64,000 nucleotides of DNA from Gammaproteobacteria bacterium. Lineage in GTDB: Bacteria; Pseudomonadota; Gammaproteobacteria; JAURND01. The stretch is from the NCBI GenBank assembly GCA_047601185.1, contig JASGJS010000001.1:1217305-1281304 (forward strand), in the 5' to 3' direction. How positions within the stretch are numbered: position 1 is the stretch's first letter; every line of letters begins with the position of its first letter. The position numbers are program-made. This document shows, piece by piece, positions 31,701 to 37,700 of this stretch.

Positions 31701-34700
31701 CGCATTGCATAAAGTGGATTTACCACAGTTGGGATTTCCTAATAAAGCGACTTTAGCGGTTTTCATACAGGGATTTTATGGAGTTGTAGGATGGCGGCTT
31801 CTTGCTTACGCAGGCTGACCGTATAACCTCTCACTTTAATTTCGACAGGGTCGCCCAGAGGGGCAATGCGGATTAACGAAAAGACAGTGCCAGGCAGCAG
31901 CCCCATGGCTAATAATTGGTGTCTATAAGTGCGCGCTCCGGGTAAAAACCCGAGGATTTTAGCGGATTCACCACATTTCAATTGGGCAATTTGCATATTT
32001 GTATGGATATTGAGATTGTGTAAAAATAGTATGGCTTCAGAGAGAGTAAATGTCAATGAGAATTGTTCTCATTTAAAGGAGGAGATAGACTATGCAATAT
32101 GTTAAAGAGCTAAAGAGCAAGAGAAATCAACAAAAGCAGCAACAAAAAGAGCAAGCCCGTAGGCATTCTATTACCGAATGGGCACTAAAAGAAGCTAGTA
32201 AGGAACATCTAAAAACCCAAAAAGTCGCAGCAGCTCAGCAAGCCCTCAGAAAGGCGGTGAGAAATGATATCTCTACACTCAAAGCCCAAAAAAGATTTGC
32301 GAGACTGACTGAAAAGGTTGCTAGAAATGAGAGCCAAGCCTATCTTGAAATCGCTAGAGCCTATGAGTTGGGTGAAGGCGTGGCGATCAATAAAAAAGAA
32401 GCTCTACACTGGTATCACATGGCCGCGAAAAGCGGACTTCCTGAAGCTCAATATAAAATAGCTTATTACTATATGCAAGGAGAGTCCGTAGAGCTAACAC
32501 AAAAAGAGGCAATTAAATTCTACGAATTGTCGGCACGACAATGTTACCCGCACGCTCAAACCGAGTTAAGCGAATTGTATAGGACAGGAGAAGGTGGTGT
32601 TCCCCAAGACCTTAAAGAAGCTCGCGCTTTAAAAGAAAGGGCTATGGAAGGATTTAATGATTTGGGTGAGCGATATCGTGATGGGATCAATGTGCGTAGA
32701 AATATCCCTAAAGCGTTTGAAAACTTTCTTTTGGCTGCTACCATGGACCATCCAAAAGGCCTGAATAATCTCGCCAAGTGTTATCGAGATGGCGTTGGGG
32801 TTGAAAGAAATCTCGATACAGCCAAACATTTTTTTAAAAAAGCTCAGGATTTAGGTTCTTTAGATGCCCGTGCCCATTTAAGAAGTTTAGAGGCCCCCCT
32901 TCCAGATAATCATGCTGCATTTTTCAAGAATCCTGCCTCAATTCAGAAAGAAAGCCGTCAATTCGTTAAAAAAGAAGAGCTGAATAAAGAGCCAAAGAGA
33001 AGCAATAGCTGTCCGAATTTTTAGAATTGACAAAATTCTAAACCAATTGTCCTAATAAAGTCTGTAAAGGGACGATCATTGGTTTTTTCAGCTCGAAGCA
33101 ATCGTGGTTAACAAAAGGCAAACGCTCAGCAACTTGCAGCACGTGTGGTACCTTTAATTGTCGATTAAAGTGCTCTAAATTAGGGCTCAGTCGAGTATTG
33201 TCACTGCTTTTTACTTCTACCATCAGCCAAGGCACTTGGTTTTTGGTCACTAAAAAATCGACTTCATGTTTATCTTTGTCGCGCAAATAATGGAGGCTAT
33301 ATTTACCCAAACCTATGTCAGTCCAAAAATGGATGGCTTTATGCAAATGACTGGCGACTAGATTTTCTAATCTAGCGCCAGGATCGCGCAAAGCAGACCA
33401 ATCCCATAAGTAAATTTTTGGTTCTTTGAGTAAAGAGCGAGAAAGATTTTGTGACCAAGGTGTAATAGAAAAACAATAATAAACATTGCGCAGTATTTCA
33501 ATCCAGTGACGAATGGTAGGCTCAGTCACCCGTGCTTTTTTAGCTAATTCGCTATATTTTGTTGTGCTACCAACTTGTTGTGTCAAAAGATAAGCCAATA
33601 ATTCTAGTCTGGAAAGATCATGAATTTTAGAAAGCTCTCTCAAATCTTCTTGAAAAATTTGTTCTTGTTTTAAATTGCTCCAACGTTGATAAAAATTGTC
33701 ATCAGCTTGTAAATAAGGCTCAGGAAAGCCACCATAATGCAATAAATTTGTCCAATCCTGGGTGCTGATAGATTTAGGCGCAATGGTTTCTTGTTTAAAA
33801 TCGTCACGACCTGCTATTTCCGCCACCGTTAGCGGGTGGATGCGGTATAAAAAATAACGCCCCAACATGCTATCGCCGCCGCGTCGGTAAACATTTAATT
33901 TGGCGCTACCTGTCACAATGATCTGACAATGGGCTTTTATGGTGTCATAGTAGCCTTTAAGCAGATTTTTCCAATTAGCGTATTTGTGAATTTCGTCAAA
34001 AATAATAATGGGGGGGCGCGATTCTGTTTGCAATGCATCTGTGGAGAATTGGGAAAAAATTTTTTCGATACCGCTTAAGATCATTTCTTTATGCTGAATG
34101 TTATCCCAATTTAAATAGAGCACATTGGGATATCCTGCTGTGCAGGCTTGACTCAAAACGGTTTTGCCTATTTGCCGTGGCCCTGTTAAAAACACCATTT
34201 TTTGGAATTTAGCTAAATGCTGTCGAATGATGGGTTGGTAAATGCGTAACATAGGCTTCACTCAGGATTTGATCTCGACTATTATAAAGGCTAATTTAGA
34301 ATAGTCAAGACTATTCTAAAGTGGGGTTTAGAATAGTCGGGATGGGGCAGGGGTCTAATCATGGATTAATTCACCCGACCATAATTTCTTTAAAAAAACC
34401 TCCCACGGCAAAATGTGGATGCCATCAGCGGTAAGTCTCTCATGATGATCTAAACTCACCACAATGTAGGTTTTGATCAACCCTTCTTCTTTAAGCGCGC
34501 GGATTCCCTTAAGATGTTTATCCATGACCAGATCTGTACCCTTCACCTCAAGGGCCAACTTGTCACCTATGACAAAATCTACCTCAAAATGAGAAGTAGA
34601 GCGCCAATATTGCAAAGGTGCGCGAATAAAATGGTAGGCCAAAAATGCTCGCAGTTCTAAGGCAATGAAGTGTTCAAACACGCGCCCAAACAATTCTGAT

Positions 34701-37700
34701 TTTAATTCAACCTGCCCTCGTTGCGTCAGAGAGCTGACGACGCCAATATCAAACAGAAAATATTTGGAGCGGGTAATGGCTTTTCGTTTGGTGGTCGCTA
34801 AAAAAGGTTTGACTGAAAAGCCCAGCAGCGTGTCATCTAATATGCCGAAATAACCTTCTAAGGTGCGAATGCTGACGCCACAGTCGCTGGAAATATTGGT
34901 ATGACTGATTTCCTCACCGTTACAAAGAGCCACGACTTCTAAGAACCGAATAAATCCTGATAAATTACGCGTTAAGGCTTCTGCTTGGATTTCTTCTTGT
35001 AAATAAGTGCCCACGTAAGCTGTCAGATATTCGTGTGCCGCTGGATTTCCATAGAATTCTGGCAGCCCCGTGGTGTTCAAATGCGTTAATAGCTCAAAAT
35101 GTGGAATTTCTTGAGAAATTAACGGTAATAACTGCGCTTGAAAGGCGCGTCCCGCTAATAAATTTGCGCCGCCTCTGCGCAATTTTCTCGCGCTACTGCC
35201 TGTCAACAAAAACGTTTGCTTTCTTTTCACAATGAGACGTTGCACTTCATCGAGTAAGATGGGGAATTTTTGAATTTCATCAATGACGACTAAGTCATCA
35301 GCTTTGGTTTCTTGACTGATTAAAGTCGGATCTCTCACCAGACGTTGAAAGGTGGAGGCATTGAGTAAATCGTAAATTTTAGCCTCTGGCAAAGTTTGCT
35401 CGATCAAAGTTCTTTTGCCGACACCCCGTGGACCCATGAGAAAGTAGCTTCTCTTTTTCAATAAATCCGCTAAGTTAAGATATCGAGTATACATCAGGTG
35501 TTCCTTTAAAATGGTTTGTCACAGCCAGCCAATCCTTACAAATTTACATACTCATGCCGATTATCATCATATTCGGCAAGTATTATGCCATTTAATTAAA
35601 ATTTTGGCAAGTTCAGACCCCATTTAAAATTGGCCATAAATTCATGCAAAGATTAGATAAAGCTTGCTGTAGTTCATAACTATTGACAAAGTTTTAACGA
35701 ACGATTATTATAGACATCAATAGGTTTTTCCATAAATCGAGTCAGCGTAGATGTTTAAAATCAACAATATAGTCACCCATAGCAATATTATTATCGCGAT
35801 TATTATTGGTCACGAGATGCGGGGCTATGTTTTTGAATAATGAAACATAGTGGGTCACCAACCCCCGCATCTTCAAAAGAAGGTGCGGGGGTTTTTTTTT
35901 AAGGTCATTTTATGCAAATAACAGGTGCAGCGGCTATTTTACAGGGGCTATTACGAGAAGGCGTAGACATTCTATTTGGTTACCCTGGGGGCACTATTAT
36001 GCCGACTTATGATGCACTATATGACGTGCGTTCTGAGCTCCGTCATATTTTAGTGCGTCATGAGCAGGGCGCTGTGCATGCCGCGCAAGGTTATGCGCGG
36101 GTGACTGGCAAGCCTGGTGTCTGTATCGTGACTTCGGGGCCTGGCGCAACCAATCTTATCACCGGCATTACCGACGCCATGTTGGATTCAACGCCCTTAG
36201 TTTGCATCACCGGGCAAGTTGCGAGTGAATTTTTAGGAACAGATGCCTTTCAAGAAGCCGATATTGTCGGGATTTCCTTGCCTGTGACGAAGTGGAGTTG
36301 TCAAATTACCCACGCTGCGGAAATCCCCGCCGCGATTGCTAAAGCATTTTTTATCGCTAAAAGTGGCAGACCGGGCCCGGTATTGCTGGATATCACCAAA
36401 GATGCTCAGTTTGCCAGCTTGGATTTTTCTTATCAGCCGTATGTGCCAGAGAACAAGCCCTTTTATCCTCATTGCAATCCATCCCTATTGCAGCAAGCCG
36501 CCGAACGCATTAATGCAGCGCAACGCCCGTATATACTTGCTGGCCAGGGTATTACATTGGCAAAAGCTGAGCTTGCTTTACAAGCTTTTGCTGAAAAAAT
36601 ACAAGCGCCCGTCGCTTGCACATTATTAGGACTATCGACCTTTCCTATGGACCACCCTTTGTATGCTGGCATGTTAGGGATGCATGGTAATTACGGCCCA
36701 AATTTATTAACGAATCAGGCTGATCTGATTATTGCCATTGGGATGCGGTTTGATGATAGAGTCACAGGCAACCTCAATCGCTATGCCAAACAAGCCAAAA
36801 TTATTCATATTGATATTGATCCGGCAGAAATCAATAAAAATGTGCCGGTTGATTTAGCATTAGTTGCTGATGCTAACGACGTTTTGCAAGCTTTAATGCC
36901 ATACCTTGAAGCCGATCGCCATAACAAACCACATGAACATTGGATCGAACAATTTCATGCCTGTCATAAAATTGAATATGACAAAATTATGCGCCAAGAA
37001 ATTAAATTTTTAGGAAAAAACATCAAGATGGCTCGGGTAATAAATGAATTATCTGAAAAAACCCCTCACCAAACGGTTATTGTCACAGATGTGGGCCAAC
37101 ATCAAATGGTTGCCGCGCGTTATTTTCAGTTTAAGCGACATAATTCGCTGGTGACTTCGGGTGGATTAGGGACCATGGGGTTTGCATTGCCCGCTGCCAT
37201 CGGCGCTAAATTAGGCCAACCGCAATGTGAAGTGATTGCCATTATTGGTGATGGCGGTTTTCAAATGAATATTCAAGAATTAGGTGTCATCGCCCAAGAA
37301 AATTTACCGGTAAAAATCGTGATCTTAAATAATAGTCATTTGGGGATGGTGCGACAATGGCAGGAATTATTTTTTGAGGAACGTTATTCTTTCGTGCAGT
37401 TAAAAAACCCTGATTTTGTCAAAATTGCCGAAGGTTATGGAATTGCTGGGCAAAGGGTAAGCGATGGTACAGAGCTTGATGCCGCATTAGAGACCTTATT
37501 GAATTATCCAGGACCTTACTTATTAGAAATAATGGTCGAAATGGAAGAAAACATTTTTCCGATGATTCCGGCAGGTTGTGGGGTGGGAGAAATTCGGTTG
37601 TCGTAGAGGTGAATGATGAAATATATTTTTGCTATATCGATACTCACTGAAAATGCTTTGCGCGTATTGCAGCGAATGGCAGGGATATTTGCGCGCTTTC

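Follow-up and report, generated by a model that had tools for sequence, protein, structure and literature searches.

The DUF4143/COG1373 proteins were listed as family 100 in a 2012 census of PD-(D/E)XK enzymes (PMC3424549). The closest described system is PDC-S01, in which an ATPase and a PD-(D/E)XK domain are fused; it has been ranked fourth in abundance among prokaryotic defences (PMC12988326) and was defined through 'guilt-by-embedding' in BREX, DISARM and type I restriction–modification (R-M) loci (bioRxiv 10.1101/2024.01.29.577857). For most PDCs validation is reported as pending (PMC12988326), and no validation of PDC-S01 was found in the literature searched. In Thermus thermophilus, an AAA_14/DUF4143 gene was up-regulated 6.6-fold with plasmid DNA present (PMC4406477). 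In the present study we analysed a stretch of 64,000 nt (hereafter the window) from a Gammaproteobacteria bacterium (assembly GCA_047601185.1, contig JASGJS010000001.1), which carries three AAA_14–DUF4143 genes, named P1, P2 and P3, each with a palindrome overlapping or adjoining its predicted promoter. The ATPase–nuclease fusion and the nuclease classification are already published and are not new, and P1–P3 are further members of a catalogued, abundant family to which they add nothing categorical. The conserved, covarying promoter palindromes are a new observation, and promoter-overlapping operators of PDC-S01 genes are not mentioned in the literature searched.

All three open reading frames (ORFs) are intact. 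A preliminary description of this DNA had assigned a P-loop, a Walker B motif and a C-terminal DUF4143 region to each of them, and the ORFs exist at the coordinates it gave, on the strands listed in Table 1. Pfam AAA_14 (PF13173) was matched in P1–P3 with 64–91 bits (gathering score 27; E-values 1e-17 to 6e-26) and DUF4143 (PF13635) with 83–127 bits (gathering score 28.1; E-values 2e-23 to 8e-37), in this N-to-C order, which is that of the COG1373 family. P1 and P2 form a tandem on the minus strand with a gap of 93 nt, and tblastn searches with P1, P2 and P3 found no fourth family member in the window. For P1, homologues and the NCBI model favour an ATG start at 34252 (404 aa) over the GTG. 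The motifs read mostly as they had first been quoted, except that the P-loop of P2 is GPRGVGKRT, the Walker B of P3 is DEVQ and the second nuclease motif of P2 is LEVK. Walker A is intact in P1 and P3 but not in P2, and each of the three proteins has an intact Walker B. The nuclease motifs are EVDFLV...VEVK in P1, EVDFVI...LEVK in P2 and EVDFVI...IEVK in P3, the EVDF...EVK stretch covering residues 333–351 in P1 and 304–318 in P2. All three proteins matched the PADLOC hidden Markov models for PDC-S01 (P1 at 1.9e-50 and P2 at 1e-52, both with PDLC04790; P3 at 1.2e-91 with PDLC04789), in support of the proposed link to defence, and NCBIfam gave no meaningful match. The view that the family is widespread yet functionally uncharacterised also agrees with our searches: the family profile collected 42,774 clusters at 50% identity (E <= 1e-3; 21,635 at 1e-10), relatives were detected by tblastn on 537 of 72,556 plasmids and in 16 of 50,697 phage records, and the literature searched contained no functional study.

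The full-length ColabFold model of P3, calculated from a 138-sequence alignment, had a pLDDT of 95 and a pTM of 0.93. It comprises an N-terminal extension, a P-loop alpha/beta domain (residues ~46–175), a helical domain (~176–220), a winged helix (~221–293) and a C-terminal domain (294–426) with the order alpha-beta-beta-beta-alpha-beta, which is the PD-(D/E)XK core fold, and the catalytic D...(D/E)xK lies on strands 2 and 3 of that fold. No variation was seen across the 138 sequences in the Walker B DE, in a serine of the GSS motif, in a GR motif, in a proline of GxP type or in the nuclease aspartate (Asp352 of P3), and the Walker A lysine and the nuclease residues Glu366 and Lys368 were at least 90% conserved. 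The alignment and structure prediction that the preliminary description had called for thus confirmed, at the level of a model, its claim of a C-terminal PD-(D/E)xK nuclease, in both the fold and the conserved D...ExK. Going by the P3 model, all three proteins have the same four parts in order: P-loop NTPase, helical domain, winged helix and, at the C terminus, the PD-(D/E)XK nuclease. The winged-helix region of P1 also gave weak matches to ArsR/MerR helix–turn–helix domains.

Structure comparison placed the NTPase, helical and winged-helix parts close to archaeal SSO1545-type ATPases, STAND NTPases, Orc1/Cdc6 and clamp-loader AAA+ proteins, and the nuclease domain of the P3 model closest to McrC and Can2. 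Among the STAND NTPases, the P3 model scored 14.6 against CED-4, 14.6 against a wheat NB-ARC resistosome and 14.1 against a TIR-NLR; among the antiviral STANDs the scores were 12.7 for Avs5 and 10.7 for Avs3. PDB sequence searches with P3 and with the 138-sequence profile returned only generic AAA+ P-loop matches and no solved family structure. For the archaeal Walker-type ATPases SSO1545 (PDB 2fna) and PABY2304 (PDB 2qen) the match is at only 15–17% identity, and their solved chains are without a DUF4143-type nuclease. The STAND class was reportedly defined by Leipe et al. in 2004 as a nucleotide-binding domain, a helical domain and a winged helix with a GxP motif; by this definition, the three-part module with its GxP motif is present in the family of P1–P3. 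Unlike STAND/Avs proteins, however, P1–P3 have no C-terminal TPR, LRR or WD40 sensor and end with the nuclease domain, and whereas Avs nucleases such as SeAvs3 and EcAvs4 are proteins of 1000–2000 aa with an N-terminal nuclease, here the nuclease is C-terminal in a protein of ~400 aa. The likeness to McrBC is limited to the McrC-like nuclease fold: P1–P3 are single fused chains without a McrB-type Pfam match or an N-terminal modified-DNA reader, and their NTPase is nearer to STAND and Orc proteins than to McrB. PDC-S01 itself has the same architecture in a single gene, with both Pfam domains found in P1–P3. The differences are that no recognised defence system adjoins P1–P3, so that the embedding by which PDC-S01 was defined is not seen here, and that P2 has a non-canonical Walker A.

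The 93-nt spacer between P2 and P1 contains two tandem 30-nt palindromes, GACTATTnTAAA-N6-TTTAGAATAGTC, at 34277–34306 and 34309–34338, whereas the number of such matches expected by chance in the window is zero. Together they make up a putative operator array of four 12-nt half-sites on which the predicted P1 promoter is superimposed, with the -35 element arising at the central junction of the array and the -10 element inside the last half-site. The same 62-nt geometry was present upstream of P1-type genes in 14 distinct loci of unrelated context, down to ~39% protein identity, and in 13 of 15 P1-type loci the best palindrome surpassed all 100 shuffles. Complementarity between arms was 85% for the central pair, 74% for the left and 68% for the right, as against 22–38% in shifted registers, and seven to nine of the 12 positions of each arm pair covaried. 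Within the half-site, the outer GAC[T/C]ATT is conserved, and the inner 5 nt change jointly in all half-sites of a locus. These inner bases track the predicted recognition helix of the protein: helices of the form [ST]EPTIR[NH]W go with CTAAA (CTAAG in one half-site of locus L006), and SV/SI-H/D-T-V/F-K-H helices, seen in four loci (SVHTVKHW in two), go with TGAA-type half-sites. In P1 itself the predicted recognition helix, at residues ~245–256, has TEPTIRHW. By our own count, the ATG of many P1 orthologues is only ~6–9 nt after the -10 element, a distance that suggests leaderless transcripts. A scan of viral contigs with the central P1 16-mer AATAGTCTTGACTATT produced 43 matches. The extended palindrome was missing from all of them, and no family gene adjoined any; nothing indicated a phage-borne site.

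P2 and P3 carry palindromes of their own. The block GCCGAwTATnATnATAwTCGGCA, to which the operator-like palindrome of P2 corresponds, is the sole conserved block upstream of five P2 orthologues in different contexts and overlaps the -10 element in four of the five. More distant P2 relatives have other strong palindromes, often in two or three copies. Upstream of P3-type genes, TTATCCTTACTTAAA-N11-13-TTTAAGTAAGGATAA runs from the -10 element to the ribosome-binding site in seven of eight loci, the eighth having a covarying variant, and this palindrome is the sole conserved non-coding block among orthologues in different contexts. Neighbouring paralogues examined at other loci each have a different upstream palindrome, and within the window each site is confined to its own promoter, no matching palindrome being found at the 3′ ends of the genes or elsewhere. 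Each cassette carries its own predicted sigma70-type promoter, overlapped by a subfamily-specific palindrome. Two other readings of these sites were tried and rejected. The predicted transcription start comes after the whole array in P1 and at or beyond the left arm in P3, which argues against RNA hairpins. Allowing three mismatches, the Fur-box consensus matches two sites elsewhere in the window but not the P2 operator.

We asked what could act on these sites. The product of the gene itself is the only protein inherited with each site, and it contains a winged helix, so that sequence-specific self-binding and negative autoregulation are the most economical interpretation. On balance we lean, without great assurance, towards P1–P3 being autoregulated, ATP-gated nuclease cassettes with their own operators, three independent members of PDC-S01. 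In the resting state, the winged helix of each protein would bind the half-sites as a dimer or tetramer and repress its own transcription, which would keep the amount of a potentially toxic nuclease low. A trigger, possibly foreign DNA, would then cause ATP-dependent oligomerization of the STAND/Orc-like module, as in STAND and AAA+ proteins, and this would join the McrC-like nuclease domains and lead to cleavage of DNA, most likely that of an invading plasmid or phage. What the analysis shows are the domain architecture, the conserved catalytic residues and the conserved, covarying arrays at the promoters; operator binding and autorepression by the protein itself, oligomerization, nuclease activity and a role in defence are what we infer.

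A regulatory parallel is provided by the controller (C) proteins of R-M systems, in which tandem palindromic operators, the C-boxes, lie over the promoter of a gene whose nuclease system is potentially toxic, and the C genes look leaderless. The P1 array is similar in its tandem palindromes over a promoter and in the leaderless appearance of many P1 orthologues. It differs in that there is no separate Xre-type C protein, the presumed binder being the winged helix inside the ATPase–nuclease, and in that the half-sites are of 12 nt with a different spacing. A more far-reaching version of the autoregulated cassette, which we regard as doubtful, is that each PDC-S01 lineage has a private 12-nt half-site whose sole chromosomal copies lie on its own promoter, and that occupancy of the operator both represses the gene and holds the ATPase–nuclease inactive, until competing foreign DNA or another trigger releases it into an active ATP-dependent assembly. 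Such a cassette, if real, would combine sensor, regulator and effector in a self-contained unit of ~400 residues, and the family would be a natural library of helix/DNA-site pairs. The half-site arrays predict a specific DNA ligand, suggest that specificity can be read from matched recognition helices and half-sites, and offer a lead into the control and DNA recognition of the family, which is very abundant and of defence type, and for which the searches turned up no demonstrated activity, no solved structure and one negative phage test. The implied tight autorepression could also be a reason for the difficulty of interpreting heterologous tests that use foreign promoters or hosts.

The preliminary description had suggested that the three copies reflect paralogue diversification under selection, and three members in 64 kb, two of them adjacent, would be compatible with duplication in the genome followed by diversification, for example in an arms race; in addition, roughly one in ten of the related loci contains another, divergent AAA_14–DUF4143 gene within a few kb (loci L013, L017, L020, L042, L046 and L105, with IS1 between the pair in L105). 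This suggestion did not hold. P1, P2 and P3 are only 23–26% identical to each other, but their closest orthologues in other organisms reach 68% for P1, 86% for P2 and 79% for P3, which points to three old subfamilies inherited or acquired separately. Furthermore, each copy shares its subfamily-specific operator with its orthologues elsewhere, and the P1–P2 tandem was absent from all related loci examined. At the family-conserved columns, P3 deviates at 0 of 127, P1 at 4 of 102 and P2 at 2 of 174; the value for P3 indicates purifying rather than diversifying selection. Diversifying duplicates are therefore a highly improbable explanation, and on sequence comparison P1–P3 are independent single-gene cassettes and not local or recent duplicates. 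Separately, one genome (MFD10064.bin.1.32) has two P2-type genes on different contigs (L028 and L033), each 82–83% identical to P2 of the window, showing that one subfamily can have several copies per genome.

The way in which the orthologues are distributed could instead reflect selfish, addictive or mobile single-gene elements, with the palindromes as recognition, cleavage or recombination sites. Orthologues up to 86% identical occur in distant taxa (P2 relatives at 68–81% identity carry the labels Coxiella, Berkiella, Deltaproteobacteria and Myxococcota), are non-syntenic and mostly solitary, and are packed tightly between unrelated housekeeping genes (TAL/PGI, efp, ligA, yajC/queA, prfB). 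Members cluster together or occasionally lie near toxin–antitoxin genes, a group II intron or IS1; the relatives on 537 plasmids and the one tested member that gave no phage protection fit the same view. However, the palindromes are at the 5′ side only, no terminal inverted or direct repeats, target duplications or other element ends were found around P1/P2 or P3, and the palindromes fall precisely on the -35 and -10 elements, as would be expected of regulatory rather than recombination sites, so that we consider selfish elements plausible but unlikely. If the palindromes are regulatory, a host protein might bind them, for instance a Fur-like regulator at the P2 site, or they might be generic terminators or repeats, and would then tell nothing of DNA binding by the protein itself: the P2 site is AT-rich and by our own comparison with the consensus partly like half a Fur box, fur and feoAB are ~3–6 kb away, and the first P1 palindrome, which comes immediately after the P2 stop codon, could form a hairpin. 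Against this, the sites accompany their gene in unrelated hosts and contexts, they differ among subfamilies and even between adjacent paralogues, the Fur scan (<=3 mismatches) misses the P2 operator, and the P1 array is for the most part upstream of the predicted transcription start and hence not an RNA structure. We therefore judge a host factor or generic repeat to be distinctly unlikely. The structural likeness to Orc1/Cdc6 and clamp-loader AAA+ proteins, the housekeeping genomic context and the strong conservation inside each subfamily could also be taken to mean that these are housekeeping factors of DNA repair, recombination or Orc/Cdc6-type replication, or ATP-dependent transcription regulators, with a nuclease that is inactive or non-defensive. 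This appears very unlikely given the patchy, non-syntenic distribution, variable copy number and plasmid carriage, the conservation of the full catalytic D...ExK, and the definition of the family by its embedding in BREX, DISARM and type I R-M loci (bioRxiv 10.1101/2024.01.29.577857).

Several observations weigh against autoregulated, ATP-gated nuclease cassettes. The winged helix of STAND proteins is usually regulatory and not DNA-binding, and we count it against our interpretation that binding and autorepression are themselves inferred. The correlation between helix and half-site is confounded by phylogeny and comes from only 15 loci, and the palindrome of P2 in the window is not significant by itself (15 of 100 shuffles were as good), so that its support comes from conservation. 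In the window the three genes lie in a housekeeping setting, next to fur, feoAB, two Sel1-repeat genes, ilvBNCAD and two-component systems; PADLOC matched none of ten neighbours, and there is no integrase or transposase gene nearby. No functional study or demonstrated activity of any family member was found in the literature searched, and the one PDC-S01 representative tested, a cold-seep protein produced in E. coli B, did not figure among the candidates that gave protection against T4, T5 or T7 (PMC12881386).

P2 differs from its relatives at the Walker A motif, where an arginine codon (AGA, 35411–35413) replaces the Ser/Thr after the lysine (Ser28Arg), and this is one of its two deviations at conserved columns. 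Of the 120 homologues closest to P2, GKS occurs here in 117 and GKT in one, and two were not scorable; arginine is found in the window copy only. The P2 promoter also lacks the TTGACA present in its orthologues, and its 5′ untranslated region is ~35 nt longer. Judged from the motif, the change likely impairs Mg-ATP handling and probably cripples the ATPase, and P2 may be ATPase-dead or decaying. Against this, the arginine codon could come from an error in the assembly of this metagenome-derived genome.

Table 1. Positions of the three genes, their motifs and their predicted control elements in the window
Feature	Position	Strand	Description
P1	33038-34261	(-)	407 aa from GTG; AAA_14 NTPase + winged helix + DUF4143 (PD-(D/E)XK)
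P1 motifs	Walker A 34157-34183; Walker B 33986-34009; EVDF...EVK 33209-33265	(-)	Walker B is DEIH
P1 operator array (putative)	34277-34338	(-)	Four 12-nt half-sites A-N6-A'-TT-A-N6-A', A = GACTATTCTAAA
P1 promoter (predicted)	-35 34308-34303; -10 34286-34281	(-)	-35 TTGACT; -10 TATAAT
P2	34355-35494	(-)	379 aa, architecture as P1
P2 motifs	Walker A 35408-35434; Walker B 35270-35293; EVDF...EVK 34541-34585	(-)	Walker A is GPRGVGKRT; Walker B is DEIQ
P2 operator-like palindrome	35555-35578	(-)	TGCCGAATAT-gatg-ATAATCGGCA, just downstream of predicted promoter
P2 promoter (predicted)	35610 ... 35582	(-)	TTGCCA (35610) ... CATAAT (35582)
P3	48603-49883	(+)	426 aa, architecture as P1
P3 motifs	Walker A 48756-48782; Walker B 48933-48956	(+)	Walker B is DEVQ
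P3 domains	Winged helix ~49263-49481; PD-(D/E)XK domain 49482-49880; catalytic residues 49650-49706	(+)	Catalytic residues are D352, E366, K368
P3 promoter (predicted)	-35 48534-48539; -10 48557-48562	(+)	-35 TTGACT; 17-nt spacer; -10 TATCCT
P3 palindrome arms	48557-48575 and 48580-48598	(+)	From -10 through ribosome-binding site

Several further features of the window were recorded. The upstream limit of the P2 cassette is an ilv attenuator-like region (35683–35911, plus strand) in front of ilvB (35912), with a promoter-like TTGACA-17-TATTAT (35683–35711), an Ile-rich leader peptide MFKINNIVTHSNIIIAIIIGHEMRGYVFE (35751–35840) and a 15-bp GC-rich hairpin followed by a T-run (35860–35893). Downstream of P3 lies an inverted repeat (50111–50303) with 64-nt arms that are 83% complementary and an inner 16-nt inverted repeat, GGATGCGGGGATCCAG, which recurs exactly at 37957–37972 between ilvN and ilvC. 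By its sequence this repeat looks like a miniature inverted-repeat transposable element or a repetitive extragenic palindromic element; a search of Rfam over the window gave one tRNA only and no match for the repeat. The two Fur-box-like sites mentioned above (50339–50357 and 56015–56033) have two to three mismatches to GATAATGATAATCATTATC, with 0.04 expected by chance, and the former is just upstream of genes for a putative membrane protein (50368–50976) and a DUF1152 protein (51024–52166). The genes near these sites may be iron-regulated, as far as the sites themselves indicate. An ORF of 423 aa (46673–47944, minus strand) gave no Pfam or PADLOC match and lies in a GC trough of 0.25–0.32, compared with a window mean of ~0.42; it is probably horizontally acquired or effector-like, in a Legionellales-like genome. 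Finally, the threonine-dehydratase-like gene of the ilv cluster (39103–40899, plus strand) encodes PALP with a C-terminal LeuA allosteric/dimerization domain (PF08502), which is an unusual combination of regulatory domains for IlvA.

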